A DNA stretch of 63,989 nt, filler included, from Candidatus Babelota bacterium (GCA_017999075.1; 9 parts of 9 records of this genome joined end to end with filler, not necessarily neighbours in it), one strand, 5' to 3'; shown: positions 2,294 to 63,290, counted from the whole stretch's first letter. Notes: generated by a model not told the origin, from the letters alone. Program-made: numbers and translations.

Positions 2294-2353
2294 TTTTTTT
2301 GAAAATTTATTTTTTTTAGGTAAATTCAGCTTTTATCCGGGAGTAATGGAAAA

Positions 2354-3930: not shown

Positions 3931-3934
3931 TATT

Positions 3935-5356: not shown

Positions 5357-5386
5357 AAATTTTATTATGGTTTAATTAAAAAAAAT

Positions 5387-6862: not shown

Positions 6863-6888
6863 AATATATTTCGGAGACAAAATTTATA

Positions 6889-7274
6889 ATGTTTGATTTA
6901 TTAAAAGTTAGAATTAATCATGGAGATCAGGCGATTAAGGATATAAGAAAAGCTAAAATCAATGATTCATTCAGAGGATTGCCTGTTATAAAAAATACCG
7001 AATGTTTTTCTGATTGCGTGAAATGTTCAGAGATTTGTTTTTCAGATGCAATAAGAAAGAATAATGAAAAAATAACTATAGATTTAGGGAAATGTGTTTT
7101 ATGCGGAGATTGCGCGAGAGTATGTCCTTATAAAAAAATTTCTTTTTCCACATTTTATAAAATTGCTTCTACAGATAGAAAAAAGTTATATATTGATCCT
7201 GATACAACTCCGGAAAAATTTTATGAGGATTCAGTAAAAATTAATTATGAAATTAAAAAAGTTTTTGGAAAATA
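6889..7274 (+). CDS. 2x[4Fe-4S] ferredoxin-domain subunit (HyfH-like, probably fused to a NuoB-like small subunit); 3' truncated by the contig end
   Basis: CFSDCVKCSEIC and CVLCGDCARVCP motifs; the frame runs into the N linker. Confidence 0.75.
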
Positions 7275-7374
7275 NNNNNNNNNNNNNNNNNNNNNNNNNN
7301 NNNNNNNNNNNNNNNNNNTTAATTAATTAANNNNNNNNNNNNNNNNNNNNNNNNNNNNNNNNNNNNNNNNNNNN
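7275..7374. other. Artificial contig linker
   Basis: 44 N + TTAATTAATTAA (stops in all six frames) + 44 N. Confidence 0.98.
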
Positions 7375-29401: not shown

Positions 29402-30714
29402 TTTATGGAGTCATACTGTTTTAAAAATTTTATATCCTGAAATTCTTCAAACCACAAAGAAATTATTCCATAAACATGAATTTCATCTTCTTCGGCATAT
29501 TTGAAATATTCTTGTATTTCATTTGAATTTATTCTGTGTGAATAACCGGTGTTTATAAAAAATTTTGAATTTTTATACCGGGATATTTTTGTTATAATGT
29601 TTTCCACCAACAAAAAATAGGTAGATAAATTCGGATGATGGCCGTCGATAAAATAATTAAAATCAGGAATTACGGTTTTATCTGGAGTACAAATTATAGA
29701 TTTCATATCAATATGAATTAAATTATATTTATTAATTAAATCTTTAAGTCCGTTTTTATATTTTGTCTGTATAATCAGAGGATAATCATCGTTATCAATA
29801 GCCAATCTTAGAAATTTATCAGCTGAATTGAAATGATTTTCCTGATAATATATTTTTCCGATTTCAAAATAAAGATTTGCGAATGAACATTCTTTCGATA
29901 AATTTTCTAAAATTTTTTTTGATGCATCACTATCATCCATAAAATTTTTTAAATAATAAGCGCTTTTAAATTTGTTCAGATGATTGCCGGCATCATTTTT
30001 ATTTTTTGAATTTCTATATACTGAACGAGTTGGAGAAAACATATAATTACCTTCAGGAATAATAATAATTAATTCTATATTATTTGCATTACAGTATTGA
30101 ATCAATAATTCCGCGTATTTAATGTACCTTGTGAAATTTATGTTTTTTTCAAATTCAGGAACAGGATGTTCGCAAAAAAAATTTCCTGAATAAATATCGT
30201 CGCTTTCATTAACTTGTTTAATGTAAAAATAATGGCGTATTATCTTAACAATTGAAGAAAAACCTATAATATTAAGAAATGGAAGCTTATCTTTTATATT
30301 TAATGAATAATAATTGGAAAATTCGTTATGACCGCTGTATATAATCATTAAATCAGGTTTATATTTAACCTCAGAAAAATATTTTTGCACTGCTTTTTCA
30401 ATTGAAAAAGCGCCCTGGGCATAATTATCGGCTATGATATTTTTTTGATAATGTTTTGTCTTATTAAATTCATATTGAATGATATTGGATAATTGCAATT
30501 TTTTATGATAAGGCCAGCCTATAGCCGTAGACTCGCCGAGTACAGCGATTCTGTAGTTATTAGTGTCAATTAAAATTTTGTTTGCCGGTTTAACAGCATA
30601 TTTCAGAAAATTATAATTTATATAGTTATAAGAAATAATTTCGGCAATAATAAATCCAGCAATTATGCCGAATAAGATTTTTAATTTTCTATGTTTGGTA
30701 AGTTTAATTTTCAT
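29402..30714 (-). CDS. Membrane-anchored SGNH/GDSL hydrolase-like protein with TPR segment (3' truncated)
   Basis: N-terminal TM; blocks VLGEST, YSGHNE and DGHHPN; TPR-like ANLYFEIGKIYYQENHFNSA. Confidence 0.75.
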
Positions 30715-31793
30715 TTGTTTTTCAAATCATTCCATCTTAAATCTTTTTTTCTGAACATAATCGGATCTAAAATTTTTCCAATTTTTTTTACAGGGATGAA
30801 TTCTTCATCTCCGAAATTTTTTAAATATTGAGGATAAATACCGTCGCATATATAATAAAAATCGCATTCGCGGCATTTTTCAAGATAAATATTATTATGG
30901 CAAAATCTGTTTTTTATAAGCCATAAAATTTTTTTTTCTTCCAGGTTACTAAGTTTTAGTTTAGTAAAAAAAGATTTAAATGGTAATTTATATTTCCAGA
31001 ATTTTTCATCAAGTTTCATACAGGCTCTTACGTTCCATTCATAAGGATCCCATTGCCACTGATGAAAATTGCAGACATATTTTTCGTATTCGCCCATACA
31101 GCATAAAGGAATATACCTGACATTTGTATAAATATTATTATCAATCATAATATTCAAAGCTTTTTTTATGTTAACAGATAAATCAGTATATCTTCCCTGA
31201 AAAGGAATATTTTCTTTATTTGACCAGTCGGTAGCAGGATGAGGATTGAAGATAATGAAATTGGCGATTCTGGGTTTGACGATCGATGTTAATTTTTTTG
31301 CTATTTCAGTCAATCTGTCGCCATTGAATTTTGTTACAACAGTATTTGTTCTGAACGAAAAATTAATTGAATGGAGGTATTCAACAGAATTCATCAGATT
31401 TTTGTAAGCGTTGTTTCTGTTTGTTATTTCATCATAATGAGATTCATAGTCGTGATAACTTAATAAAACGTCTTCCAATCCTTCTGAAACTAAATTTTTT
31501 ATTGTTTCTGTTTTTTGCCCGTTAGTTATTATTGTGGGGAGTATCAGCCTTTCCCTGCAATACTTAACCATTTTTATTATTTCTTTGTATACTGTAGGTT
31601 CTCCGCCTGTTATGTCAAAATATTTAATTTGATAATTTTGTTTAAAAATATCAATTTCGTTTTTTACATCTTCAAAACTTCTTTGCTCCCTGTATTTTTT
31701 GAATTTGTAATAACAAAATTTACATTCAATATTGCAGGCAAAAGTGGGATATATATCCACTCTTTTATTTATTTTAATAATATTGTTGTTCAT
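30711..31793 (-). CDS. Radical SAM protein with C-terminal Cys cluster (SPASM/twitch-like)
   Basis: CNIECKFC, ITGGEPT and ITNG motifs; C-terminal C-X8-CRECDFYYICDG. Confidence 0.88.
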   Translation of the reverse strand: MNNNIIKINKRVDIYPTFACNIECKFCYYKFKKYREQRSFEDVKNEIDIFKQNYQIKYFDITGGEPTVYKEIIKMVKYCRERLILPTIITNGQKTETIKNLVSEGLEDVLLSYHDYESHYDEITNRNNAYKNLMNSVEYLHSINFSFRTNTVVTKFNGDRLTEIAKKLTSIVKPRIANFIIFNPHPATDWSNKENIPFQGRYTDLSVNIKKALNIMIDNNIYTNVRYIPLCCMGEYEKYVCNFHQWQWDPYEWNVRACMKLDEKFWKYKLPFKSFFTKLKLSNLEEKKILWLIKNRFCHNNIYLEKCRECDFYYICDGIYPQYLKNFGDEEFIPVKKIGKILDPIMFRKKDLRWNDLKNK

Positions 31794-37145: not shown

Positions 37146-40100
37146 TCAGTAATTACTTAAATTATATTTTTTTATATATTCTGCCGGTTCAAAATTATCC
37201 GGGATAAATCTGCCTACAATTACAGGCCTGAATAATACCGGATAACTCATATTGTGCGGCAAACTTATTTCAATATAATAATCGCCGGCTTTCAATTTAT
37301 TTATTTGATGATATCCCGAATTAATAAAATTAAATTTATCATCATACAACTTACATTCAAGAAAATCATCGCTTGATTCCATTCCTATTCCTATAATTTT
37401 TTCCGATAACAAATTAAAAGAATAACATTTTATATCTCCAGGATTTATTACTGTAAATACTCCATAAGTATCATTAATGATTTCTATATTTTCTTTTTCT
37501 ATTTTTATATTATTTATATAATTTTCAGCAAAACCTTTAAAAAATATTTTATATTCTCCACTACCAAAAATCACTGGAAGTTTAGAATTAAATATTTCCG
37601 AACACACTTTAGATGCATATCCTGTTCCTGATACTTTATAAACAAATGGTTCTGCAGAATAAAATTTATAAAATACCGGTTTATCGTTTTTAAATAATAA
37701 TCCTGTTTCTTTTACTTTTACAATATGTTCACGACTTTCTGAAACAGGAATTAATTTTTCTTCCGTTATTGAAACCATTCCATAACGTCTAAAAATATTT
37801 TCTGATTCACTAATCCAAAACTTAAAAAAACCAGAATTCAATTTTATATTCATAGAAATATCTTTACCCAGATCAATAATTGCGGAATCATTCAAAAATT
37901 TTCCTGAAGCATCAAGAACACTTATAATCTCAAAATTTCCTGTCAAATTCAATTTTCCTGTTGTGGTTCCGGAATTAATAAAAATTAATTTAATTCTTCT
38001 GCTGTTGTAGTTAAAAATTTCACCTGAACTATCAGTTAAAAATTTATTTATAATAATTTTATCAGGAAATTTTTCAGATACAGCAGTAAAATAAATTTGA
38101 GTTCGATTTAAATTAATAACCGCAATTTTTTTTTCAAAAGATTTAACAGAAACATTTTCATATTTATCACAAAAATTATAAAAAACTTCATCTATAAAAC
38201 CATTTTTTTCAGAAAAAACAGCACAGTTCCGCGGAATGCTAAACTTTATATTTTTATCATACGAACCATTAAACACCATAAAAGCGCCTGTATCGCATAT
38301 TCCATTGAAATTATTTTCAATATCCAATAAAATATTATTTTTTTTTATTTGATTTGATTCAAGTTCTGCATTTATAAATAATTCTTCGGAAATTTTATTA
38401 TCAGCATTCCACAACACTAATTTTCCGGATTTGGAAAAAATGGTGAAATTTTCGTGGTTTCTAAAATCACTTGAATTAGTTGAAATTAATAACTTTTGTA
38501 TTTTAACATTAAATTCATTATTTTTTTCTTTTTCCTGAATCATAATTCCAGCGCAGATCTTATTTGAAACAGAACTCGCTTTAACAGAATTTATAAAATC
38601 AGTTTCAACAGGAACATCAATTACAACAGGCCTTCCGGAATAAAATGACACTTGAGTTTTTCCTTCTTTCAAATAAAATTTATCAATTTGAATTTCAATA
38701 TTATTTTCACTATCATTTTGTTCTGGAATTATTACGGTTTTATTATTCAATATTGTAAATATTTCTGTAATTTTTTCAGCAGGTTTTTCCAGTTCGTCAA
38801 TATAAAACAATTCTAATCCGTTTGACGGCAAATATTTTATTAAATAAGACGAAACCTCGTTTGATAAAAAGCTTTCAATTCCGGATATTTTATACGGTTT
38901 CCCAATATTTTCCGATAATTCTGATTCTTTTTTAATTTTTACAGCATCAATTTTAACAGATACTTTTCCCGAAATATTTTCAAAAGCCCACAATTTAATT
39001 TTATATTTTTTTCCCTTAACCAAAAGAATTTTCAAATTTATATCGCAAGCTGTTTTAGCTGCTATTTCCATACCTTCAGAATTTTCCAAAATAAAATTCA
39101 AAGATTTCCCTGATAAAATTTTAAAACAAGTTATATCATCTGACGCAATAAATTCAAATTGCTTAATTTTATCATAAATTTCTGTTATATATTCAAAATT
39201 ATAATCAGCTTTTTCCAAAGTATCAGATTCAATCTTCATAACAGAAACTTTTCCATAATTCCGGTTATCAGAAACAATATAATTTCCGTATTGATTGACA
39301 TTCCAAACATCATTAAAATTTCTGTCAGGCAAAACATTATATTCATTTTCAGTTTCACTATTATTTTCATTAGATATAACCCGAGAAATTTTCAATTTAT
39401 ACTTTCCGGAACTTAATTTTTTGCAGATCATAAAATTCCAATTATTTCCATTATCATCTGAAACTGCAATTCTGACGTTTTTTTCATCAAATAATTCTGC
39501 CCTAACATCTGTTTGTCCAAACGAAAAAATTTTATATGTCCCTTCTTCTCCTATTGATAAATCAAATTCTGACGGTAATTCCGCAGTTCTGGTTATTCCG
39601 TCAAATATTTCAGTTGTTTCCAAAAAAATCTCATACTTCAAAAAATTTCCTAATCTGCTGTTTTCAACTTCAATTATATATTCTCCTTTTCTCAAAACAT
39701 TTTTAAAACCTGAAATTTTATCTATTATTCCTGATACTGCCATATTCTCTTTTCTTTTTATAACGCCCCTCATATAATTCGTCAATTTCACAGTTATTTC
39801 AGCATCAGCAGGAAGATTAAATTCATATTTATCAGGAATTCTATTATTTATATCTTCAGTTTCTATCCAGATATTTTTCAATTTTTGCCCGAATAAAATT
39901 TTATGAGGGCCTTTTCCTTCGATATTATTATTCTCAATATTATATCTGAAAAATTTCCATAACCGATATGTTTCAGCAGTTGCCGGCGATGAAATAAGTT
40001 TATATATTCCTTGATCCAATTCAATTATAACAGGAGTTTTAAATACATTTATTACAGGCCACCCATTTTTATCTTCAATGCGGTTTTCAAAAAAAAATTT

Positions 40101-42464
40101 TTCTCCGACTGATTCCACATAATAAAATCCATTTGTATCAATATTTAATTCTGCAGAAAGACCTGTATTTGAAGGGACAGAAATTCCGTATTCTTTTATT
40201 TCAAGACATTCGTCAACTTCAACAATATTTCCTTTTTTTAAAATTATTCCTGTTCTGCCAGAAGTATTTCCAATTGCCTGAACTATTATGTTATATTTTC
40301 CTTTTTTAAAAAAATTATGAATAATAAAATTTCCATTATCAGCATTGCATTCAACTGCATATAATTCGTTTGACATCTTTGTTTTAATATAAGCTTTAAG
40401 TTTCAGCCTTCCAAAAGATTCAATATAATAAATTCCGGCATCTTCAACATTAAATTCAAAAGTTTTAAATTGATCATAATCCAAATCAAAAAACTTTTGT
40501 TCATTCAACTTTATTTTTTCAAACCCGTCGAATTTATTTTTTTTCAATTCATAAAGCCTGGAAATAATTTTTTCCAATTTTTGATTTTCCTCAGTTTCCG
40601 AAACAACACTCAAATTAAAATATTTTAATCCGTTTCCCTTGTTTTTCAATGTTAAAATCTTTCCGCGCTGTGAATCGTTTAATACACTATAATTTTCAAT
40701 TTTTTTACCTTCAATATAACAATCTATATTTTCCGAATCAGAAATAACAAGTTTAACATTATCAGGAAAAGTTAAAGATTTAATCTCTATCTGTTCATCA
40801 GGTCTTAAAACAACAGGCAGCGGATTATTAATATCAACAGGATATTTTTTTAAAACTATACCTTTATCTATTCTGTATTGCTTGTTTAAAAATAATTTAT
40901 AACTGTATGTTCCATTAAAAACCAATTCAACAAACTGAATATTTCTTTTAACCGCAAAATCTTCTATTTTTAATTTTTTAAAAATTTTAGTCATTAAAGT
41001 TTGTTTACTGACAGCTAACTTTATAATTCCTTTTTTTTCAGGTTTTAAAGAAAATACATAAATTCCTTTTTCAAGATGAAAATTTCTATTAGTTGTATTC
41101 CATTCAGGAGATTGATATCCTTCAGGTTTATTAATCAAAAATGGTTCAATCCTGCATTTTGCCGGAATTCCTTCTGATTTAACAGAGTATTCGCCTGCTT
41201 CCATTACTTCAAAAAAAATCGAATTTTCGCCTGTTAAATTAAATCTGCGCGACCATCCTGAATTTTCGTTTAATTCTATTAAGCTTTTCCCGATTATTTT
41301 CGAACGTTCTCCATCGCCAAGCTCAATAACAATTCCAGTAGCATCAATATTGTCCTGCGGATAACCGGAGTGAATAGTTGACAACCAATATGTTCCATCA
41401 TTGTATTTATCAGCCAAACTAATTTCATTATTATCGCATCTCGTAAAAACTTGTAAAATAAATTTTTCTTCAGGCAGTCCTGATACTCTAACAATCTTAA
41501 AATTTTCGTTTGAATTCGGAACAAAAATTTTACATTCAGGTTCTTTAGAATCTTTAGTAATTTGAGTTTTATAAGCAAAATTATTAAAATCAAACATTTT
41601 GTCCGAATAAAAATCCGAAACTTCCAATTTTAATTTTTTTTTATCCGCAATCTGAATTAAAAAAAAAGTGGCTTCAGCAGAACACAGGTATAAATTTTCT
41701 CCGGCATCAGATATAACATCTTCAAACCTCATATTGTTTCCTATTTTTCTAATTCCATATTTAATACAAACAGGATACTTATCTTCATCATTTGCCCAAA
41801 TTTCTTTTTCTCCGCCGTAAACAGTAAATAAATAATATCCTGCATTCAGTTGAGCTGTCATCGTAATATGTTTTAACGGTTGCCCTGTTTCAGTCAAAAC
41901 CTGCTTTTTATAAATGCGGCTATCGGCAAGCCATTCTCCTTCAAACCATAATTTACAATCATCTGCATTTCTGCCGTAACATTCAAAATAAACAATTTGA
42001 CTTTCCGGAATATATATCCAATATGACAGTTGTTCATTATCTTTCAAGGAAGTTTTTTTTACCGAATTTTTTATTATAAATTCATCTTGAATATTTTTTT
42101 CAATAGTAGGGATTATGCTTATTTTAAATTTCCCGATTCCTTTTTTCAAAGAATTTGTTATAATTTTATATTCACCGTAATCAAGCAGAAAATATCCTTT
42201 CCCGTCAGTTTTTCCGGTTTCTCCAAATGATTCTGAAACACCTGTAAGTTTATCTACTAATTTAAATGATGTTCCTTGTTTTTGTTCGCTTTCTATAGAA
42301 ATAAGATATCTGCCGGGTTTTCCTATATTCAAAATACACTCATTTTTACCTTTTGCTAAAAATTCTGTTTTATCAAATTTATATTGCTCATATCCGTAAA
42401 GTTTAAAGTAAAACATTGTCAAAATACCAAAACATATAATAATTTTTAAATAAAATTTTTTCAT
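37146..42464 (-). CDS. Large secreted protein with multiple PPC-like beta-sandwich domains
   Basis: Signal peptide; recurring units such as FNVEDAGIYYIESFG, GQTDVRAELFD...SDDNGNNWNF...LSSGKYKL and LKAGDYYIEI. Confidence 0.7.
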   Translation of the reverse strand: MKKFYLKIIICFGILTMFYFKLYGYEQYKFDKTEFLAKGKNECILNIGKPGRYLISIESEQKQGTSFKLVDKLTGVSESFGETGKTDGKGYFLLDYGEYKIITNSLKKGIGKFKISIIPTIEKNIQDEFIIKNSVKKTSLKDNEQLSYWIYIPESQIVYFECYGRNADDCKLWFEGEWLADSRIYKKQVLTETGQPLKHITMTAQLNAGYYLFTVYGGEKEIWANDEDKYPVCIKYGIRKIGNNMRFEDVISDAGENLYLCSAEATFFLIQIADKKKLKLEVSDFYSDKMFDFNNFAYKTQITKDSKEPECKIFVPNSNENFKIVRVSGLPEEKFILQVFTRCDNNEISLADKYNDGTYWLSTIHSGYPQDNIDATGIVIELGDGERSKIIGKSLIELNENSGWSRRFNLTGENSIFFEVMEAGEYSVKSEGIPAKCRIEPFLINKPEGYQSPEWNTTNRNFHLEKGIYVFSLKPEKKGIIKLAVSKQTLMTKIFKKLKIEDFAVKRNIQFVELVFNGTYSYKLFLNKQYRIDKGIVLKKYPVDINNPLPVVLRPDEQIEIKSLTFPDNVKLVISDSENIDCYIEGKKIENYSVLNDSQRGKILTLKNKGNGLKYFNLSVVSETEENQKLEKIISRLYELKKNKFDGFEKIKLNEQKFFDLDYDQFKTFEFNVEDAGIYYIESFGRLKLKAYIKTKMSNELYAVECNADNGNFIIHNFFKKGKYNIIVQAIGNTSGRTGIILKKGNIVEVDECLEIKEYGISVPSNTGLSAELNIDTNGFYYVESVGEKFFFENRIEDKNGWPVINVFKTPVIIELDQGIYKLISSPATAETYRLWKFFRYNIENNNIEGKGPHKILFGQKLKNIWIETEDINNRIPDKYEFNLPADAEITVKLTNYMRGVIKRKENMAVSGIIDKISGFKNVLRKGEYIIEVENSRLGNFLKYEIFLETTEIFDGITRTAELPSEFDLSIGEEGTYKIFSFGQTDVRAELFDEKNVRIAVSDDNGNNWNFMICKKLSSGKYKLKISRVISNENNSETENEYNVLPDRNFNDVWNVNQYGNYIVSDNRNYGKVSVMKIESDTLEKADYNFEYITEIYDKIKQFEFIASDDITCFKILSGKSLNFILENSEGMEIAAKTACDINLKILLVKGKKYKIKLWAFENISGKVSVKIDAVKIKKESELSENIGKPYKISGIESFLSNEVSSYLIKYLPSNGLELFYIDELEKPAEKITEIFTILNNKTVIIPEQNDSENNIEIQIDKFYLKEGKTQVSFYSGRPVVIDVPVETDFINSVKASSVSNKICAGIMIQEKEKNNEFNVKIQKLLISTNSSDFRNHENFTIFSKSGKLVLWNADNKISEELFINAELESNQIKKNNILLDIENNFNGICDTGAFMVFNGSYDKNIKFSIPRNCAVFSEKNGFIDEVFYNFCDKYENVSVKSFEKKIAVINLNRTQIYFTAVSEKFPDKIIINKFLTDSSGEIFNYNSRRIKLIFINSGTTTGKLNLTGNFEIISVLDASGKFLNDSAIIDLGKDISMNIKLNSGFFKFWISESENIFRRYGMVSITEEKLIPVSESREHIVKVKETGLLFKNDKPVFYKFYSAEPFVYKVSGTGYASKVCSEIFNSKLPVIFGSGEYKIFFKGFAENYINNIKIEKENIEIINDTYGVFTVINPGDIKCYSFNLLSEKIIGIGMESSDDFLECKLYDDKFNFINSGYHQINKLKAGDYYIEISLPHNMSYPVLFRPVIVGRFIPDNFEPAEYIKKYNLSNY

Positions 42465-45879: not shown

Positions 45880-48800
45880 TTATTCTCCGAATAAATTTAT
45901 TCCCTTCATTATATCTCTGAAAATTAGGTTGAACGCAATAGGATTTGAATTTTTAAACCTGCCGGTCAATAATTGTTTTGCATTTGAAATGAATGATTTG
46001 CCGTTTATATAATTAGATAATTTTATTTTTTGAAATTCTATAAAATCAATGTATTTTGAATCTTTGTCAGTTATTGTATTTAGAATATTATAAGCGTCTT
46101 TATAATTTCCCGATTCAATATGAGAATTGACAACCATTATTTTATAAGTGTTATTAAGTTCATTGATACCTATTATTTGCGACAATTCACAAATTTCTTT
46201 ATATTTTCCCAATTTATAATAAAGATATAATAATTTTTTTCTTCCTGCATTTTTTAATTGAGTGTCAGAATCATCCAATTCATTTATAAATTCAATCAGT
46301 AATTTTTCTGAAGCTGAATAATCACGTGATTTTATAAGGCTGCTTGCTTTGTTGTAATTTGTAAAATTTTTTTGAATTGAAGGAATATTTTCAAACTTTA
46401 CGGATGCATTGAATCCTATATATTTTGAGATGGAAACAGGCATATAATGATTTTTTGAAATTAACCAGAGTTCCTGATAACCCGGTAATGGATTAAGTAA
46501 TGTGAATTCTCCCTTTTCATTTATATTACCTATATTATCACTTATATTAGTGGTAATAAATGATTCTGAAGCAAATTTATCCGCTGAATTTTTAAGTTTG
46601 AAGGAACCTGAAACAAAACTTGAATTATCAAAATAATTTTCAAATATGTATTTGTATAATGTGGAATTTTCTCCGTATCTGTGGATACAGAATAATTGAT
46701 CTTCAGTAATTAACGGATCAATATAACTGTAACCTCCTTTCAAAAATGGAACTGTATTTTTATTATCATAAAACCATTCTAATATATTGCCGTTTTTAAT
46801 TGAATAAAAAAAACCTTGAAAATTGTCGAAATATAGGTCAGGCACTTCAGAAGATGATATTGCTTTTATATAATTAACGTAAAAATTATTTATTGGCATA
46901 GAATCAATTTTTGATGAAGATAAATTTTGAGGATATGTCAACTGATATAAATAGCCGTTTTGTTTATTATATTTTTCTGAAATAGAATCTCCGGCTGAAT
47001 CAAATTTGTTTATATCTGCAATGCTTTTTACTAAATTATTTTCGTTTATTCCAGTGTAAAAATTTATTTCGGCGGGTTCTGAGTTTTTTCGGAATTCATG
47101 AAAACCTGTTGTTTTTTGAGATTCGTTTGATTCTTGAGTTTTTGGCTGAAGTTGATTTTGTGAAAAAAAATTTGAATTCTGATTAGTGTTTATTTCTGAA
47201 TCGGTCAACATATATATTTGAGTTTCTGAAATAGGATATATAGATTTTATAATTTTGTTTTTTACCGAATAAATAACTTTATTTTTATTTTTTATAGAAC
47301 TGGATATGATTATGTTTTTATTGTCTTCTAAAAAACATAATGTGTTTCCATCAATCCAGAAAATGTTTGATAAAGAATTTTTTGTGGAATATAAAATATA
47401 ACTGTTTAATCCGTTTATATCAACTATTTTTATTCTGCGTGTTGATTTATCAATGGTTTCGGTTAATGCTATTAAATTTCCTGAGGGTGAAACTTTAATT
47501 TTTTCTATAGGATACGACGAAAAATAAATATCATCGATTCTATACCCTCCGCCTCTTATAATAACTGAAGAAATTTTATATTTTTTTGCCAGTTTGGTAT
47601 GTTTTAAAAAACCCGCGCAATATAAATTCTCCTGAAAATAATCAAATGATGATATATAAAAATTATTATCTGTTACAGGATATTTGAAAAAATTATTGAA
47701 ATTATTATTGTGAAAAATAAAAATTTCTGATGCGTGTTTGTCATATACAAATATATATTTTTGATGAATATAAATAAGTTCAGGAATTATATTGTCATTA
47801 GAAGAAACTATTTCTGAAATAAAAGTTCCGTCAATCCTGAATTTTTCAATTGTGTAATATGTTAAAAAATAAATATTTCCGTCATAATCGCAATGTTTTT
47901 TTGCAGTATTATATTTTTCGTAATATTGAGTCCATAAATCATTTTTTATGATTTTTTCCAGAACTCCGGTTTTTGAAAACATTTTTATTACAGGAACAAA
48001 ATTTTCAGGGTTTGAGTTATCAAAAAGATCTGTTTCGAGCGAGGACCAATAAAATTTTGCTCCATCTTTATCAACTCCGATGAATTTCAAATCTTCGGAA
48101 TTAATGTCAGATAATTCTGTTTTATCTTGTCCGTATTGTTTTTTTACAATACCTTGCTTTATGGAATATAATTCATTATCATATCCTAAATATAACATAG
48201 GAGATTCGAGATATTCTTTTATTTTCGGAGAAATATTGAATTGTTTGATTAAATCTGCGGCAAATAAATCAGTGTAATTTGAAAAACCGGGATTGTATAT
48301 TCTTATAATATCTGTTTTTCCTCCGGATAAATAAAGATTGGTTCCATCATAATAAATTTTTTCGATTCGGGACATAATATCAGGGGAATATTTTTCTTTC
48401 AATTTCTGAAGAACAGTTGTTGGTAAATATTTTTTTTTGAATTGAGTATTGCTTATAGGATAAAAATTCAGTAAATTCCCTGAAAAATCAAGTTCTCTTA
48501 CTTTATCCTGAAATTTATCGTCTTTAACCAATAAAGTATTATTCCCTGATAAAGTTACGAGAATATTAAACGGTTGCGATTCTTTAAAATAATATTTATG
48601 AGCGCTGTAATCTGAAAAAGAAACATCTAATTGTTTTATTAAATCAGGAGCATATGGAAATTTATCTATTAGAACTGCGTCATTATCATATTTGTAAATT
48701 AAACCTGAAGCGTTATCGGCTATAAATACAAATTTCTCGGAATTTACAGGTTCTGCAGGTAAAACAGGATAATCATTTTTTAGTTCAGAAGCTGAGCTTG

Positions 48801-48933
48801 ATATTTTTGCGGCAAGTTTTATTTCGTGCGCAGACAAATATTTATCTATAACATTTTGTTTAGAATATAATTCCGAATTGAAAATTGTTTGTAATAAAAA
48901 TATTATAATGAATAAGCTACTTTTTTGATTCAT
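45880..48933 (-). CDS. Large secreted beta-propeller / TPR protein
   Basis: Signal peptide; NHL/propeller-like repeats (DYDGNIYF, VSPSGNLIA), a beta-sandwich segment (INEKGEFTL...PGY) and helical TPR-like C-terminus. Confidence 0.6.
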   Translation of the reverse strand: MNQKSSLFIIIFLLQTIFNSELYSKQNVIDKYLSAHEIKLAAKISSSASELKNDYPVLPAEPVNSEKFVFIADNASGLIYKYDNDAVLIDKFPYAPDLIKQLDVSFSDYSAHKYYFKESQPFNILVTLSGNNTLLVKDDKFQDKVRELDFSGNLLNFYPISNTQFKKKYLPTTVLQKLKEKYSPDIMSRIEKIYYDGTNLYLSGGKTDIIRIYNPGFSNYTDLFAADLIKQFNISPKIKEYLESPMLYLGYDNELYSIKQGIVKKQYGQDKTELSDINSEDLKFIGVDKDGAKFYWSSLETDLFDNSNPENFVPVIKMFSKTGVLEKIIKNDLWTQYYEKYNTAKKHCDYDGNIYFLTYYTIEKFRIDGTFISEIVSSNDNIIPELIYIHQKYIFVYDKHASEIFIFHNNNFNNFFKYPVTDNNFYISSFDYFQENLYCAGFLKHTKLAKKYKISSVIIRGGGYRIDDIYFSSYPIEKIKVSPSGNLIALTETIDKSTRRIKIVDINGLNSYILYSTKNSLSNIFWIDGNTLCFLEDNKNIIISSSIKNKNKVIYSVKNKIIKSIYPISETQIYMLTDSEINTNQNSNFFSQNQLQPKTQESNESQKTTGFHEFRKNSEPAEINFYTGINENNLVKSIADINKFDSAGDSISEKYNKQNGYLYQLTYPQNLSSSKIDSMPINNFYVNYIKAISSSEVPDLYFDNFQGFFYSIKNGNILEWFYDNKNTVPFLKGGYSYIDPLITEDQLFCIHRYGENSTLYKYIFENYFDNSSFVSGSFKLKNSADKFASESFITTNISDNIGNINEKGEFTLLNPLPGYQELWLISKNHYMPVSISKYIGFNASVKFENIPSIQKNFTNYNKASSLIKSRDYSASEKLLIEFINELDDSDTQLKNAGRKKLLYLYYKLGKYKEICELSQIIGINELNNTYKIMVVNSHIESGNYKDAYNILNTITDKDSKYIDFIEFQKIKLSNYINGKSFISNAKQLLTGRFKNSNPIAFNLIFRDIMKGINLFGE

Positions 48934-51137: not shown

Positions 51138-53084
51138 GTGTATATTGATGTTTACAGATCAGGAGTTAATACAAATATTAATCAAAATGATTCTGTTTTT
51201 GTTCAAACTTTTACTTATAATCCGTTGTCAGATACTAATGTTCTGGAAAACAATTTAATGCTTTCATTAAGCGGATTGGCAGGAAATAATGGTGATTCAT
51301 ATCAATTGATAGCACAAGCAAGAGATCAGTATGGAAATACCAATGATAATTTTGAAGTTGTTCAAAGTTCTGTAAGCAACGCAAATTCAATGGTACATCA
51401 TTTTGATGTGAATTCAGGGTATGCATTAAATTCTCTTCCATTGGGAAAAGATATAATTTTTACATTGATAGCAAAAAATGTTTCTGATCAGACAATTGAA
51501 GCATTTACAGGAGAAGTTTATATTGAAGTTCAGGAAAATGAAGGGTTGATATTTGGAAGCTGGAATTCTGATAAATTTGCCGGTAAAGACAAAATCGTTG
51601 TTAATATGAAAGGCGGAGTAGGATATTTTGTAATGAATAATTCTGAAAAAGAAGACATAAATATTGGTGTGAAATTTGGAACTAATATTTCTCAGGATTT
51701 TGTATTGGGATTTGCCGCAAGTCATAAAGGTATATCAACGACATCTCAGTTTGCATTATATGCTGATAATACTGAATTTAATTCAAGAGAATTTGTTAAA
51801 GTTACTGTATTTGCACTGAATGCCGATGGTATGATAAACACTGATTATACAGGAAACCATAATGTTACCTTCAGGACAAATGAAAATATGAATGATTATT
51901 CAGTGAAAATTAATGATCAGACAGTTGAAGGAAATAACCGTACATTCAGTCTTAATTTTGTGAATGGTGAAGCAGTTGCAGTTGTTAAAAATATTTTAGG
52001 AGCATATGAAAGTTATGAAGAATTTAGTTTATCAGCAATTGGTGACGGTGCAGCTCAATCGAATTTGTTGAATTTAAAAGCTTCTAATAATCCTGTTAAT
52101 GAGGTTTTAATAAATGGAGCAGAACATATGGGAGAAGCTTTAAATAAGACTAGTTATGGAAGTAGAATAAAAATCAATTTTATGACAGGTTATGGAGATT
52201 TTCAACCAATTACTTATTATAATGGAATAGTTTACGCATCAGTTGTAGAAGATCCGAATAATAATAACAGCGTTCGTATTGCTGATCGTGAAATAAAAAT
52301 TTCTAACGGTATTGGAAACTTGATTATTGATAATGTTGATAAAGAAATGGTGCGTATTAAACTTGAAAGGCAAATTGACGGTATTATTGCTTTGAATAAA
52401 GAATTTTATGTAACTTTTGCTTCTGTTGATGTAATACCTCCAAAACTTGTTAATGCTTATGCAGAAAATCCTTATTTGATACATCTTGTTTTCAGTGAAC
52501 CTCTTGATCCTGTTAATGTGTTTAAAACAAGCAATTACAGGGGAATAGGACCTAGGATACATACTGTATGTTATTATTCTGATGAAGTAACTTTACATTT
52601 AGCTACTCCATTGACTTTGAATAAAAATATAACTATTCAAATCAATAATGATGGCGCAGACGGAATCAAAGATAAAGCTGGAAACTATTTAACGGATAAC
52701 AGTAAATCTTTTGCTACTCCTGGAGTTGATCTTATAGGAAACAGAGCGAGTGATGAATATTTTGCTGTTGAATTACCTGCAAATTTTGTAGCAAAACAAA
52801 GTGTCAATACTACTTTTAGAGTTGTTGTAAAACATATGAATGCTTGCGGGTTCTTAAGTGGAAAGAATACCATAAATGCAAAACATAAAATTTCTAATGC
52901 TAAGGTTAGTTATGAAGGAGTATCAGGAGTTACAGGACCGTCGACCATAGAGTTTACTGATGGTAAAGCTGAATTTAATGTAACGGTTCCGGCTAATCCT
53001 TCAACAGGAGATATTATAATAAGGATTGACGACAGCGTGATTCGCGGTGGAGGAAAAACAAATATTAATAACGTGCTTCCGTAA
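51138..53084 (+). CDS. Surface protein with tandem Ig-like domains (5' truncated)
   Basis: Repeats such as ARDQYGN, FTGEV, YTGNHNV and FVNGEA, plus a Big_5/SbsA-like unit (DVIPPKLV...LVFSEPLD...IKDKAGNYL). Confidence 0.7.
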   Translation: MYIDVYRSGVNTNINQNDSVFVQTFTYNPLSDTNVLENNLMLSLSGLAGNNGDSYQLIAQARDQYGNTNDNFEVVQSSVSNANSMVHHFDVNSGYALNSLPLGKDIIFTLIAKNVSDQTIEAFTGEVYIEVQENEGLIFGSWNSDKFAGKDKIVVNMKGGVGYFVMNNSEKEDINIGVKFGTNISQDFVLGFAASHKGISTTSQFALYADNTEFNSREFVKVTVFALNADGMINTDYTGNHNVTFRTNENMNDYSVKINDQTVEGNNRTFSLNFVNGEAVAVVKNILGAYESYEEFSLSAIGDGAAQSNLLNLKASNNPVNEVLINGAEHMGEALNKTSYGSRIKINFMTGYGDFQPITYYNGIVYASVVEDPNNNNSVRIADREIKISNGIGNLIIDNVDKEMVRIKLERQIDGIIALNKEFYVTFASVDVIPPKLVNAYAENPYLIHLVFSEPLDPVNVFKTSNYRGIGPRIHTVCYYSDEVTLHLATPLTLNKNITIQINNDGADGIKDKAGNYLTDNSKSFATPGVDLIGNRASDEYFAVELPANFVAKQSVNTTFRVVVKHMNACGFLSGKNTINAKHKISNAKVSYEGVSGVTGPSTIEFTDGKAEFNVTVPANPSTGDIIIRIDDSVIRGGGKTNINNVLP

Positions 53085-55568: not shown

Positions 55569-58001
55569 TTGATAATGAAAAATTGCATAAAATATATATT
55601 TTTTATTTTTCTTGTATTTTATTTGAGCGGTTGCGGTAAATCGGGAGGCAATTCCGGATTAAATGTCGGTGTTAACCGAGCTCCATCTATACAGTTTAGT
55701 TATGGATGCGAATATACTATTGAACTGATAATTTCAGGAGCAGTAAGCAGTACACAGAGTGATACATTTTTATATTCTGATACTTACGTTAAAAATTATC
55801 CTTTATTTGAGTTTGATGCTGAAGGAGCTGTGACAATACGAGTTAATATTTTATTTGATACTACGCTTATAGCTTCAGGTTCTGCATCAGCAGTGCTTGT
55901 AAGAGGATCTACTGCAGAAGTTAATCTTGTAATTGACAAAACAGGGTCTCAGGCGATAGCCGAAGAAGCGTTATGCGCTTTGCAGTCAGGAAATTGGCTG
56001 GCTGCTCGAGATTCATACGCTCTTGCTGTAAGCATGAATCCTGCAAATTATGATGCTCACCTAGGGTATGTTGCAACAAATCTCGGACTGCTTGTTGATA
56101 CTGATTCTATTCAATCTCTTTTGAAAGATATCTGGGATGTTTATGGAACAGAATTGAAAATTAATCCTCTTGATCCTGATGATACAGTGCCGTCAAGCAG
56201 AGATTATCTTGATACAAACCAATATACATCGTATATTCCATATGCTATTAAATATTCGCAAAGTATAATTAAAAAAGCGAGCAAAGGGGAAATTAATTCT
56301 TCAAGATTACAAAATATATTGTTAAATACCATTCTTCCTGAAATTAATGGTTCCATTAATTCTATAGATATTATTATTCAAAATAATCCTTATTATCAAT
56401 TCAACATCACATATGCGATGACGCCGGATCCATATGATCATTCCCGTGACAACAAGTATACATATTCTGTACTTTATCAGATAGACAGACCGTCACTGGA
56501 AGCTTTAAAAGCTATATTATCTGCATTGAAAGGCACAATTTATTACGTTTGTTCATATGATTTCGATATGGATGATTATTCGGATACTAATTTTAAAAGT
56601 ATTACGACAAGGTCAGCGTTGACAAGCAGGTATCCGTATCTGGGAACATTGAAAACCACAAATTATATATCCGATTTCAGGCAGTCAATTATCAGTGCAT
56701 TGGAAAGTGCTAAAAATGCTTTGCTTCTTGCAAAAGAAATAAGAGATGCAGGCGGGGCAATACCTGAAAAACTTTATGATGTTACGGATTTAACTGTTCA
56801 GGAATTTAATGATGCGGTTGAAGCTATAGACACAGGGTTATATTATGTGAGAGATGCAAATGCATTAACAGGAAATTCGCGCATAGACATTGATTTTAAT
56901 GGAGTTTACGAAACAGCATATCCTAATAATTTTTTCAGCAGTCCTATACAGGATATGAAAGTTTTGATGCCTGACGTATTTGATACAGATATTCAATCTA
57001 CATTCTCATTTGCAAAAAGTGATTTGAATTTTATATTTTCTGATTTGAGTGATGAGGCATTCAATAAATTTAAACGCAATATAAATATAAAAAGAATCCA
57101 TGATTATTTTAATGTATCTTTTTCAAAAGACTATGATAATGACGGTATTGCAGATTTAAGCGTAAACAGTACTTCAGGATTAATAATATCAGCTGCTCAA
57201 AATAAAAAAATAATAGAAATAGATGGGAAAATACCGGTTACAGTAGATGTTATTAATATTAATTCCGGCGAACAATCGTTAAGTGTAAACACATCCAATG
57301 ATCCGTCGTACGGAGGAATGAAAGGAAATATAAGACTATTTGGTTTTCAAACATCAACCGGGTTATATGGTATAGCCAGGATTTTTTATAATATAAACAC
57401 ATCTTATTATTATTATAATTGGTTTGTGAGTGATGTTTATATAAATATGACTGGAGAAAACCAGTTCTGGAATTACAGTCGTCAGCAGCAGTTCACAGTT
57501 TATGGAAGAAATGATATGGCTGATTACGCAGTATATAGCGATACCAACATGAGTTTATTAAGAAAAGGCAAGGCTACTCCTTCGGAACTCGGATGGAATA
57601 TTATAGGGACGTATACTGTTGCTTCTGATTCAACTGAAGTTATAGTGAATTCTGAAATTGCATATAAGAATTTTTTGATAGTTACTACTAAAGACAGTTA
57701 TGTGATTTTGAGTCCTGAAATACAGATGACATATTATAATAGCTGGTCAAATGGAGGTTTTGTTCTTGCAGGAGGTTGTAATGAAGAGTCATCAATGTTA
57801 TATGAAATTTTTGACGCTGAATATTTAGTGAATGATAACAGTAACTACAACCATTATTTTTCAGGGATACCATATTCATATTATAAAAGAAATGGTTTTT
57901 TTGAAAAAGGAGAAATTTATGGATTGTATTCTATAAGCAATGGTTCAAGTTCGAGCAATTCAATTACTATAAAACTTTTAAAGGAAAACCGCGGTATATA
58001 A
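55569..58001 (+). CDS. Large lipoprotein with TPR-like segment
   Basis: AGGAGG RBS, lipobox LSGC, TPR-like ARDSYALAVSMNPANYDAHLG and DYDNDG calcium-loop-like motif. Confidence 0.7.
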   Translation: MIMKNCIKYIFFIFLVFYLSGCGKSGGNSGLNVGVNRAPSIQFSYGCEYTIELIISGAVSSTQSDTFLYSDTYVKNYPLFEFDAEGAVTIRVNILFDTTLIASGSASAVLVRGSTAEVNLVIDKTGSQAIAEEALCALQSGNWLAARDSYALAVSMNPANYDAHLGYVATNLGLLVDTDSIQSLLKDIWDVYGTELKINPLDPDDTVPSSRDYLDTNQYTSYIPYAIKYSQSIIKKASKGEINSSRLQNILLNTILPEINGSINSIDIIIQNNPYYQFNITYAMTPDPYDHSRDNKYTYSVLYQIDRPSLEALKAILSALKGTIYYVCSYDFDMDDYSDTNFKSITTRSALTSRYPYLGTLKTTNYISDFRQSIISALESAKNALLLAKEIRDAGGAIPEKLYDVTDLTVQEFNDAVEAIDTGLYYVRDANALTGNSRIDIDFNGVYETAYPNNFFSSPIQDMKVLMPDVFDTDIQSTFSFAKSDLNFIFSDLSDEAFNKFKRNINIKRIHDYFNVSFSKDYDNDGIADLSVNSTSGLIISAAQNKKIIEIDGKIPVTVDVININSGEQSLSVNTSNDPSYGGMKGNIRLFGFQTSTGLYGIARIFYNINTSYYYYNWFVSDVYINMTGENQFWNYSRQQQFTVYGRNDMADYAVYSDTNMSLLRKGKATPSELGWNIIGTYTVASDSTEVIVNSEIAYKNFLIVTTKDSYVILSPEIQMTYYNSWSNGGFVLAGGCNEESSMLYEIFDAEYLVNDNSNYNHYFSGIPYSYYKRNGFFEKGEIYGLYSISNGSSSSNSITIKLLKENRGI

Positions 58002-58077: not shown

Positions 58078-58198
58078 GTTAAAAATATAAATTATATTTT
58101 GAACAAAAATTTACTTATAGTTTATCAATATATAAAATTTATAAAATTGGATAAGAACCATTTGAAAAAAGTTCTATTTTTTTTGCTTAGTATAGTAT

Positions 58199-58298
58199 NN
58201 NNNNNNNNNNNNNNNNNNNNNNNNNNNNNNNNNNNNNNNNNNTTAATTAATTAANNNNNNNNNNNNNNNNNNNNNNNNNNNNNNNNNNNNNNNNNNNN
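58199..58298. other. Artificial contig linker
   Basis: Same 100-bp spacer. Confidence 0.98.
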
Positions 58299-60928: not shown

Positions 60929-61012
60929 ATAATTTTTAGATTTTAATACTATTATTGTTTATATTATATTATATTATATTTATTATTGAAAATCCATCAT
61001 TGAAAATGCCTA

Positions 61013-61041
61013 TTGCATTTTATGGAATTATATTATAAAAT
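61013..61041 (+). promoter_or_regulatory. Putative promoter of the BMC-cinA genes
   Basis: TTGCAT (61013-18), 17 bp, TAAAAT (61036-41); preceded by ATTGAAAAT direct repeats. Confidence 0.4.
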
Positions 61042-61099
61042 TAAGACAAAAATACTAAATATTAATTTCAATATTTAATTCATTAATCGGGGGACTGAA

Positions 61100-61984
61100 A
61101 TGAAACAAACCTCTTTAGGTTTTGTTGAAGGCCGGGGCTTTGCCGGAGTGCTCAAAGCTACAGATCAAATGCCTAAAACTTCTGAAGTAGATTTTTTTTC
61201 ATACGCCAATATAAGTGGTAGTTTTAATACTATAATATATGAAGGAGAGGTCGGAGCAGTACGCGCTGCAGTTGAAGAAGCAGCTCAATTTGTAAATGAA
61301 GTAGGAACATTGCATACTGTTAATGTTATTCCGGCTCCTCATACTAAAATATATGATTTTATAAAAAATAATAAAGAACAGACAATTAATAATGGCGAAC
61401 TCGGAATAGCTTTAGGCATGGTTGAGACCAAAGGGTTTGTTCCTATGATAGAAGCTGCTGACAACGGCATAAAATCTGCAAAAGTCGAACTTGCAAACTG
61501 GCTAACTATAGGTGGGGGATACACAACTGTTTTTTTTAGAGGAGACGTGGCTGCAGTTTCTGAAGCTGTAGAATCAGCAAAAAAAACAGCTTCAAAAATA
61601 GGAGAAATTTTCAGTTCTCATGTTATTCCTTCTCCTCATTTGCTTACTAACGCAATAATGCCCATAGGAAAACTGCAAAACCAAAAGCTTGATATAAACC
61701 CTATTATAAAAAATAAAGGAGTTGGCGAAGCTATTGGAATTATAGAAACTCAAGGTTTTATTCAACTTGTTGAAGCGGTAGATGCAGGTCTTAAATCAGC
61801 CTCAGTCATTTCTACAGGATGGTATAAAGTAGGATCTGCTATGGTTTCAACTATATTCAGAGGGGATGTTGCAGCAGTTAAAACTGCTGTGTCTGCCGGG
61901 AAAACAGCAGCTCAAAAATTAGGAAAAGTATTAAGCTCGTATGTAATTCCCAGACCTCATTCTTCTGTCGAAAAAATTATTTAA
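61100..61984 (+). CDS. Bacterial microcompartment shell protein with three tandem BMC domains
   Basis: Three complete PduA/EutM-like units, each with (A/S)(L/I)GxxExxG, DxxxK, GxVxAV and VIPxPH, at aa ~4-88, ~103-188 and ~210-294. Confidence 0.9.
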   Translation: MKQTSLGFVEGRGFAGVLKATDQMPKTSEVDFFSYANISGSFNTIIYEGEVGAVRAAVEEAAQFVNEVGTLHTVNVIPAPHTKIYDFIKNNKEQTINNGELGIALGMVETKGFVPMIEAADNGIKSAKVELANWLTIGGGYTTVFFRGDVAAVSEAVESAKKTASKIGEIFSSHVIPSPHLLTNAIMPIGKLQNQKLDINPIIKNKGVGEAIGIIETQGFIQLVEAVDAGLKSASVISTGWYKVGSAMVSTIFRGDVAAVKTAVSAGKTAAQKLGKVLSSYVIPRPHSSVEKII

Positions 61985-62009
61985 GCTAAGATATATTTAA
62001 AATGAATGA

Positions 62010-63290
62010 ATGAATGCTGAAATAATTGCTGTAGGTTCCGAAATATTATTAGGAAATATTGTTAATACAAATGCCCAGTATTTATCGGCTCGGCTGGCAG
62101 ATTTGGGGATTTTTGTTTACAGGCATACAGTTATCGGGGACAACAGCCTAAGACTAAAAGAATCATTGGAATACGCTTATAAACAAAATGATCTGATAAT
62201 CACTACCGGAGGTTTAGGCCCTACTAAAGATGATTTGACAAAAGAAACAGTTTCAGAATATTTTGGAAAAAAATTATTATTCAATGAAAAATCATTCAAT
62301 TCTATAAAATCATATTTCAATAAAATAGGAATTGAGGTAAGTGAAACCAATAAAAAACAGGCATATTTTCCGGAAGATTCAATAATTCTGGAAAATAATT
62401 TTGGAACTGCCCCAGGATGTATAATAGAAAAAAACGGAAAATATTTAATTATGCTTCCTGGTCCTCCTAATGAAATGAAGCCCATGTTTGAAAATCTCGG
62501 AATTTCTTATCTGTCAAAATTTATAAACGGAGTTCTTGAATCAAAAACTTTGCGTTTAACAGGCATAGGCGAAGGGAATATGGCAGAACAAATTTCAGAT
62601 TTACTTGATTTAAAAAATCCTACTGTAGCTCCGTATGCAAATATGTCAGACGTAGTAATACGGTTAACAGCGTATGCTGAAAATAAAGTTAAAGCATTAA
62701 AACTTATTGAACCAGTAGAAACAGAAATAAGAAAACGCTTGGGAAATTTTATTTACGGAATTAACAATGAAACTCTTGAAGAAATCGTTGCAAAAAAATT
62801 AATTCAAAAAAAGCTGACTTTATCTATTGCAGAATCGTGTTCCGGCGGGTTATTAACAGCAAAACTCGTTAATTTTCCCGGAATATCTGCAGTATTGAAA
62901 GAATCAGTAGTATGTTATTCAAATGAATCAAAAATTAATAGACTGGGAGTAAAAAAAAATACTTTAGAAAAATTCGGAGCTGTCAGCTCTGAAACAGCGT
63001 CAGAGATGGCGCAAGGTATAGCATTATCTTCAGGTTCTGATATTGGAATGTCTATAACAGGTATAGCAGGGCCTGACGGAGGAACTCCTGAAAAACCAGT
63101 GGGTCTTGTTTATTTCGGATTATATTTTAATGCAAAAAACAATATTGGCTCAACTTCAAATATAATAAATTCTGAAGAACAAATTTTCACTGAAAAAAAA
63201 ATTTTTGCCGGAGATCGAAATAAAATAAGAAAACGCAGCGCAATATTTGCTATTGACATTTTAAGAAAAAAATTGTCATCAAAAATCTGA
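62010..63290 (+). CDS. cinA: Competence/damage-inducible protein CinA (MocF + PncC domains)
   Basis: VGSEILLG, TNAQYL, TGGLGPTKDDLT, GTAPG, LPGPPNEM, AESCSGG, GAVSSE and SITGIAGPDGG. Confidence 0.95.
   Translation: MNAEIIAVGSEILLGNIVNTNAQYLSARLADLGIFVYRHTVIGDNSLRLKESLEYAYKQNDLIITTGGLGPTKDDLTKETVSEYFGKKLLFNEKSFNSIKSYFNKIGIEVSETNKKQAYFPEDSIILENNFGTAPGCIIEKNGKYLIMLPGPPNEMKPMFENLGISYLSKFINGVLESKTLRLTGIGEGNMAEQISDLLDLKNPTVAPYANMSDVVIRLTAYAENKVKALKLIEPVETEIRKRLGNFIYGINNETLEEIVAKKLIQKKLTLSIAESCSGGLLTAKLVNFPGISAVLKESVVCYSNESKINRLGVKKNTLEKFGAVSSETASEMAQGIALSSGSDIGMSITGIAGPDGGTPEKPVGLVYFGLYFNAKNNIGSTSNIINSEEQIFTEKKIFAGDRNKIRKRSAIFAIDILRKKLSSKI

Follow-up and report, generated by a model that had tools for sequence, protein, structure and literature searches.

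In those passages of the 2021 catalogue of bacterial microcompartment (BMC) shells that are used here, six types of shell protein are distinguished, which are one-domain hexamers, two-domain trimers or pentamers (PMC8217296). In the same passages, BMC-T^s is a two-domain fusion that forms trimers, and the (P/A)RPH motif belongs to the interface between hexamers (PMC8217296). BMC domains have also been joined by design: PDB 6NER is a synthetic tandem fusion of a BMC-H domain from Haliangium ochraceum, which in the part of the shell structure paper used here is cited as forming pT=4 particles (Kalnins et al. 2020, PMC6971018). The gene considered in the present work, at 61100..61984 on the plus strand of a 63,989-nucleotide stretch of DNA from a Candidatus Babelota bacterium (GCA_017999075.1; records joined end to end with filler, hereafter the window), encodes a BMC shell protein with three domains in one chain.

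A natural three-domain BMC tile is not described in the consulted portions of the catalogue and preprint, the 2014 taxonomy, BMC Caller and the 2024 paper on sugar-phosphate-utilisation (SPU) microcompartments, subscription journals and supplements aside. Full-text literature searches aimed at natural BMC proteins with three or four domains gave no description either; one hit there concerns three tandem-domain dimers. In supplementary data, three-domain proteins may have gone unnoticed as members of BMC-T^s, and the databases already contain three-domain sequences under generic names. The three-domain tile is a real and conserved architecture that has apparently escaped description, with an assembly state that is predicted.

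Domain architecture and predicted fold

The open reading frame (ORF) starts with ATG and encodes 294 amino acids followed by a stop codon. When its limits are drawn with a hidden Markov model (HMM) built from the three-domain protein's own domains, the chain divides into BMC domain 1 (residues 1-91, 61100..61372), a first linker (residues 92-98, 61373..61393), BMC domain 2 (residues 99-190, 61394..61669), a second linker (residues 191-205, 61670..61714) and BMC domain 3 (residues 206-294, 61715..61981), all on the plus strand. The Pfam family PF00936 matches the protein in three stretches, with an E value of 5.2e-65 and 215.8 bits against a cut-off of 24.5. The best of these stretches, residues 104-179, follows profile positions 1-75 of 75 in normal order, from which it follows that the domain is non-permuted. 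The initial annotation had claimed three complete, non-permuted BMC domains, and the three PF00936 stretches in the 294-residue frame agree with this. The NCBIfam model for EutM (NF012018) is also passed in three stretches, with 197.4 bits against a cut-off of 133, and the protein scores below the cut-offs of the two-domain NCBIfam models CcmO and PduT.

The individual domains resemble BMC-H proteins such as PduA, EutM, CcmK and CsoS1: single-domain PDB chains match them with 46-52% identity and root-mean-square deviations (rmsd) of 0.6-1.4 A, the EutM model is passed, and none of the three domains has lost the edge lysine (K26, K125 and K232). The difference is that a BMC-H chain has one domain and forms a homohexamer with six identical edges, while the present chain has three domains, of which only the third (IPRPH) has the arginine of the (P/A)RPH motif; the corresponding residues are IPAPH in domain 1 and IPSPH in domain 2. 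The loops at the pore differ as well, being NISGS in domain 1, TIGGG in domain 2 and KVGSA in domain 3, and a pore cysteine is absent from the protein. The translation thus bears out the initial annotation's account of the edge lysines, the single arginine and the three different pore loops.

The linkers are 7 and 15 residues long between HMM envelopes, and about 14 (residues 90-103) and 24 (residues 187-210) residues long between regular secondary-structure elements in the AlphaFold2 model. The lengths of about 14 and 21 first proposed fall inside these ranges, which are 7-14 and 15-24 depending on the definition used. The pairwise identities of the domains are 29.7% for domains 1 and 2, 25.0% for domains 1 and 3, and 43.8% for domains 2 and 3, so that domain 1 is the most divergent of the three. 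Identities of 25-44% exclude a recent duplication.

The AlphaFold2 monomer, built on an alignment of 81 rows, has a mean pLDDT of 94.0 and a pTM of 0.92, and consists of three beta-alpha-beta-beta-alpha-beta repeats packed side by side. The only stretch of lower confidence lies around residues 191-210, that is, at linker 2, where blocks of pLDDT 79 and 64 are found. In a Foldseek comparison of this model with the PDB, two-domain BMC-T chains (3nwg, 6n0f_I, 5dih_B, 5dii_A and 6n06_A) superpose on two adjacent domains over about 180 columns with an rmsd of 2.1-3.0 A, so that neighbouring domains of the model are placed as they are in the ring of a pseudohexamer. Among the PDB chains listed, none covers more than about 190 columns and the TM-score normalised by the query is at most 0.55; in a sequence search of the PDB, no chain has more than two BMC stretches. 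The best PDB match, both by sequence (E 5.7e-51, two stretches) and by Foldseek E value, is 6NER, in which BMC-H domains are likewise covalently joined and still assemble. That fusion is man-made and repeats two identical domains, whereas the present one is natural, diverged and conserved across phyla.

When two copies of the chain are predicted together, the score is 0.70 (0.70, 0.70 and 0.63 in the three runs), and the best of three controls scores 0.00. Such a mark is reached by 20 of 30 proteins whose solved form is a pair of the same chain and by 1 of 23 whose solved form is a single chain. At least 96% of the contacts are common to the three runs, with a partner pLDDT of at least 88 and 121-133 confident contacts. 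The predicted interface is the same on both copies: domain 1 contributes residues 12-45 and 68-69, its partner's domain 3 contributes residues 214-294, and further contacts at the centre involve pore-loop residues 138-139 and 246. This pairing of a domain 1 face with the opposite domain 3' face is what a closed ring in the order D1-D2-D3-D1'-D2'-D3' requires. The two-copy prediction thus closes the ring symmetrically, which supports, without proving, a C2 dimeric pseudohexamer; the dimer that the initial annotation expected stays a prediction.

To see what such a dimer would look like, consider a single chain that folds as a rigid half-ring. Two such chains would close head-to-tail, with domain 3 against domain 1', and give a flat C2 pseudohexamer, as large as the BMC-H hexamer and the BMC-T trimer. 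Three different loops would each line its pore twice, and its rim would have three kinds of edge, each occurring twice and on opposite sides, with only the domain 3 edge fully canonical in the predicted tile of this 294-residue protein. With the BMC-T^s proteins (PduT, CcmO and BMC-T1 of Haliangium ochraceum) the protein shares a non-permuted fusion of PF00936 domains, the placing of adjacent domains in a six-domain ring and an equal linker length. It differs from them in having three domains where they have exactly two, and its predicted symmetry is C2 and not C3, with three and not two kinds of edge and pore loop.

The three-domain family and its relatives

A scan of one genome per species gives two orthologous loci, with 87% and 74% identity. 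The phylum of the first of these comprises three genomes in total (G001-G003), and a full-length orthologue with an open frame is present in all three of them, with 87, 75 and 53% identity. A protein search gives 1,347 matches at E values of 0.001 or below. Among the best 120 of these, our own HMM counts three domains in 81, two in 28 and four in 11. Pfam finds three PF00936 stretches in all 40 proteins of 287-316 residues that were tested, four in all 11 of 370-386 residues, and two in all 5 shorter ones; one protein of 248 residues (P0093) has three domains by our own HMM and two by Pfam. Many homologues thus have the same three-domain build, for which the initial annotation had proposed a search. 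Where the sources of the best 120 matches are named, they are Hydrogenedentota, Elusimicrobia/Elusimicrobiota, Sumerlaeia and metagenome-assembled genomes (MAGs) labelled 'bacterium', and the automatic JGI names of family members are 'CcmO' or 'CcmL/EutN'.

The history of the domains can be read from a FastTree phylogeny of 358 domains. Here, domain 1 of the three-domain proteins forms a single clade (84 of 84, support 0.94) which also contains two intruders from two-domain proteins, and domain 2 falls in one clade for 82 of the 84 proteins (support 0.89). Across the family, the identity between domains in the same position is 49-55% and thus higher than the 36-43% found between positions. Clades that follow position, together with an identity within positions that exceeds the identity between them, mean that the fusion is old and that the positions have evolved separately. 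Judged from the tree, the fusion is old and conserved, and domains 1 and 2 each have their own lineage, i.e., they show positional orthology.

The mean frequency of the most common residue is 0.59, 0.62 and 0.60 in domains 1, 2 and 3, and 0.27 and 0.17 in linkers 1 and 2. The edge lysine is kept in 82, 80 and 84 of 84 proteins for domains 1, 2 and 3, respectively. Domain 1 has the arginine of the RPH motif in 38 of 84 proteins and asparagine in 30, domain 2 has the arginine in 12 of 84 and serine in 43, and domain 3 has the arginine in 64 of 84. By these residue frequencies, each domain position has its own edge chemistry, and the non-equivalent edges proposed in the initial annotation are supported by differences that are specific to position and extend over the whole family. 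Linker 1 has a median length of 6 residues beyond the HMM ends (range 5-10), the same as the linker of the two-domain relatives, and the median for linker 2 is 10 residues.

The family occurs at low frequency. A profile search of 1.84 billion cluster representatives (50% identity) gives 8,985 BMC-like clusters at E values of 0.001 or below, and the best 150 of these include 13 of 283-330 residues in which a single stretch spans almost all of the three-domain profile. With a subfamily alignment of 25 rows, 80 metagenome loci are obtained through generic BMC motifs; none of their 215 BMC ORFs has three domains, 179 having one and 36 having two. Fusions longer than 515 residues are not found at E values of 1e-20 or below, which is weak evidence, and among the ESM Atlas clusters of at least 50 members the nearest is a four-domain family, with no three-domain cluster among those listed. 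Although rare, the three-domain family is conserved in several candidate phyla.

Two side branches of the family may be mentioned. P0067 and P0068 are three-domain paralogues with 47% identity, both reported from the same source with a longest contig of 26,567 bp, and they may be encoded together. P0067 lacks the edge lysine in domain 2. The pair hints that heterodimeric tiles may exist in some lineages. Among the two-domain proteins, P0090, P0098 and P0115 have domains that are nested in the domain 2 and domain 3 clades of the three-domain family, and P0096 and P0097 are nested in the domain 1 clade. P0090 matches the three-domain profile at positions 102-290 only, and since it lies on a contig of 1.26 Mb it is not a fragment. 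From their position in the tree, these nested proteins may be split or ancestral forms.

The protein search also gives the four-domain BMC proteins of 370-386 residues (P0076, P0077, P0080, P0083, P0085-P0089, P0091 and P0092). Their linkers are very short, and in the tree the domains group by position, with a separate clade for each (11 of 11). In the Atlas, a cluster of 382 residues has 457 members, most often from Latescibacterota. The three-domain and four-domain proteins are alike in being natural BMC fusions of higher order, but the domains of the one are only 31-41% identical to those of the other, so that the four-domain proteins may have a separate origin. No description of a four-domain BMC protein was found in the literature searched. 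This sister architecture poses an assembly puzzle of its own: as four does not divide six, a four-domain chain must pair with a two-domain partner or bridge tiles.

Genomic setting and microcompartment type

In the window, the three-domain gene stands alone among housekeeping genes, between rubrerythrin and cinA, with a threonyl-tRNA synthetase also nearby. The relatives of this synthetase have 87% and 78% identity in MAGs and then about 60% across many phyla, a drop that fits a deep and poorly sampled lineage. A sequence resembling a Shine-Dalgarno element, GGGGGA, is read at 61089..61094 on the plus strand, 5 nt 5' of the start codon. The GC content of the gene is 37%, against 32-36% for its neighbours. 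A scan for promoters and terminators gives weak consensus matches only, and no terminator between the gene and cinA. The 171-bp spacer 5' of the gene contains an AT-rich short repeat of tatat units at 60950-60990.

The type of microcompartment is seen more clearly in the three related genomes. Each of G001-G003 has one single-domain PF00936 gene (94-103 residues), one two-domain gene (184-192 residues) and one three-domain gene, together with three genes of the vertex protein family PF03319 (BMC-P), and the shell genes lie on different contigs. By Pfam, the relatives' main locus encodes a PTAC of PduL type, BMC-H, BMC-P, an aldehyde dehydrogenase, a small protein and RpiB. The locus is whole in G002, and in G001 the contig ends within it. 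A flavoprotein resembling PduS (Complex1_51K, RnfC_N, Fer4_17, SLBB) adjoins the two-domain BMC-T, which is PduT-like and has a cysteine in the pore loop of its first domain, where the three-domain protein has none. A pair of this type is described as MNdh/BMC-T^SE in the part used of another paper (PMC11626177). One BMC-P adjoins a 456-residue aldolase of the DeoC family, and another BMC-P stands alone. The relatives' three-domain gene also stands alone between housekeeping genes, which in G002 are those of a phosphatidylserine decarboxylase and a protein of a tRNA methyltransferase family (PF03054).

In the relevant sections of the 2021 catalogue, the SPU type is defined by pfam01791 plus pfam02502, and BMC-P triplets are described (PMC8217296). 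The SPU paper, in the parts consulted, gives AldDh, PTAC and PduS as frequent members and also mentions a triplet of BMC-P genes (PMC11585597). In G002, DeoC adjoins BMC-P and RpiB is present in the locus with PTAC, BMC-H, BMC-P and AldDh; a partial locus is found in G001, and AldDh is present in both. With DeoC, RpiB, AldDh, PTAC, PduS and the BMC-P triplet, the relatives' organelle is filed under SPU. Scattered shell genes and satellite loci are normal for some types, and satellite shell genes have a proposed role in a separately regulated tuning of permeability, again according to the sections used of the catalogue (PMC8217296). The placing of the three-domain gene as a satellite of a dispersed SPU-type microcompartment, its membership in an old and conserved family, and the four-domain relatives all go beyond the initial annotation.

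The aldolase, the dehydrogenase and PTAC each have a short segment ahead of the enzyme domain matched by Pfam, and these segments are candidate encapsulation peptides. Between the aldehyde dehydrogenase and RpiB lies a small conserved ORF, of 106 residues in G002 (L021:8401-8718, minus strand) and of 120 residues in G001 (L026:309-668, minus strand). Neither version has a match in Pfam, and the G002 version has none in NCBIfam. Its product is a candidate component of the organelle.

The rest of the window contains an operon for a membrane-bound complex of hydrogenase-4/Mbh-like type at 281-7326 on the plus strand, which includes two antiporter-like subunits and NuoH-like, NuoD-like large and ferredoxin-like subunits. 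On the minus strand, HydG, a maturase of [FeFe]-hydrogenase (516 bits against a cut-off of 312), and a second radical-SAM gene are found at 27645-29060 and 30714-31793, with an ORF of 454 residues between them. This ORF, two ORFs of 1,772 and 1,017 residues on the minus strand (37149-42464 and 45883-48933) and two of 648 and 810 residues on the plus strand (51138-53084 and 55569-58001) have no match in Pfam at E values of 1e-5 or below and none in NCBIfam at 1e-8 or below. The window has 704 N in all, and one run of N falls within a small ORF at 58099-58254.

Competing interpretations and implications

Taken as a whole, the explanation that we consider likely is that the gene encodes a genuine shell tile, made of three fused, complete and canonical BMC (PF00936) domains. 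The tile would close as a C2 dimer and, in an SPU-type metabolosome with genes scattered along the chromosome, join one BMC-H, one PduT-like BMC-T and three BMC-P, as a minor tile that is encoded in a satellite locus and has its asymmetry hard-wired, and it would probably set permeability or fill two-fold positions of the shell. Several points weigh against this explanation. The oligomeric state is, throughout, a structure prediction of the two-copy state. BMC hexamers and trimers of this fold have already been solved, and the pass of the two-copy prediction may reflect likeness to them. The columns of the predicted interface are not clearly more conserved than others, the values being 0.66 versus 0.57 in domain 1 and 0.54 versus 0.62 in domain 3. 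In the tree, domain 3 is split, its best clade holding 42 of the 84 proteins, and does not resolve as a single clade. A scan of the 50 other ORFs tested in the 64-kb window gives no member of a microcompartment family, and the SPU set of the window's organism is deduced from relatives with 53-87% identity, in a gene context seen within one small phylum alone.

One may imagine, instead of a closed dimer, a chain that bridges tiles, such that domains 2 and 3 form a BMC-T-like trimer ring, while domain 1 is donated to a neighbouring hexagon, built from the domain 1 units of six chains. The protein would then be a covalent staple. That a D2-D3 unit can exist alone is suggested by P0090, P0098 and P0115 with their domains in the domain 2 and domain 3 clades, the four-domain chains cannot close a six-domain ring with identical copies and need a partner or bridging, and domain 1 is the most divergent domain. 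Linker 1, however, is short, with 5-10 residues beyond the HMM ends and the length of the in-ring linker of two-domain relatives, all three domains are packed side by side in a monomer model with a pTM of 0.92, 121-133 confident contacts close the ring in the two-copy model, and domain 1 keeps its edge lysine in 82 of 84 proteins and is as conserved as the other domains. Bridging is, with these points taken together, an unlikely arrangement. It is very improbable that the protein is no part of a metabolosome shell in this organism but an orphan BMC protein, forming sheets, tubes or a scaffold, or the leftover of a lost microcompartment. Such a role would fit a window in which the gene has rubrerythrin and cinA, and no microcompartment gene among the ORFs scanned, as company, and it would fit the different neighbours in G002. 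Yet the orthologue occurs together with BMC-H, BMC-T and three BMC-P in 3 of 3 relatives, and with SPU enzymes in G002 and in the partial locus of G001, the genes being just as scattered; such scattering with satellite loci is normal for some types in the consulted part of the 2021 catalogue (PMC8217296), and the edge lysine is kept in all three domains.

The remaining alternative is that the frame is an artefact of assembly or gene calling, for instance a read-through of three adjacent BMC-H genes. The window comes from a metagenome assembly of low coverage, with contig word depths of 2-6, and neighbouring BMC-H genes are common, as exemplified by the 179 single-domain ORFs in the 80 generic BMC loci. 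Against this stand the Logan contigs of four public runs (X1-X4) from two studies of wastewater and activated-sludge metagenomes, aligned to 60950-62050. The X1 contig (61263-62050) spans both linkers with no differences and no gaps, the X2 contig (60989-61670) spans linker 1 with no differences, and the X3 contig (61548-61790) spans linker 2. These three runs may include the window's own source sample; the X4 contig (61158-61519) comes from the second study and spans linker 1 with four substitutions and no gaps. Full-length orthologues with 53-87% identity are, furthermore, present in three other assemblies, and the 81 three-domain proteins among the 120 best database matches have conserved linker lengths. 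The artefact reading is refuted as far as sequence data allow, and we give it next to no probability: the three-domain ORF is, on this evidence, not an artefact. The initial annotation had held both a duplication and an assembly artefact to be unlikely, and it is upheld by domain identities of 25-44%, by linkers that are intact and free of gaps in contigs of public runs, and by the existence of orthologues. All computational checks suggested in the initial annotation gave the outcome that it foresaw.

If the tile is a C2 dimer, there is a place in an icosahedral shell that it could fill. A T=4 shell has 30 hexagons on the icosahedral two-fold axes, and each of these touches two pentamers and four hexagons. 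A C2 dimer with three types of edge, each present twice and on opposite sides, fits this two-fold environment exactly. A pT=4 shell with 12 pentamers and 30 hexamers has been solved, according to the part used of the structure paper (PMC6971018). The three-domain chain could thus hard-wire the three quasi-equivalent hexamer positions of a T=4 shell or, more generally, provide a C2 tile addressed to two-fold positions, a proposal that we put forward as quite improbable in its own right. If it were true, one type of domain would face the pentamers and the other two would meet around the three-fold axes, and sixty three-domain chains with sixty BMC-P chains would form a shell that offers the same surroundings to every chain. 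This would be a microcompartment counterpart, in our own comparison, of the pseudo-T capsids of viruses. The C2, C3 and C6 tiles, i.e., the three-domain protein, BMC-T and BMC-H, would then be addressed to different positions in the lattice, which would give these bacteria a shell whose size and composition are set.

A natural three-domain tile would add a two-fold building block, with three different pore loops, and the polypeptide itself would dictate the order and stoichiometry of its three types of edge. Such a tile matters for how the permeability of shells is controlled and for how tiles find their places. Engineers have so far built tandem fusions of their own, of which PDB 6NER is an example, and the family would offer them a model from nature for pores that are asymmetric and edges that can be addressed.

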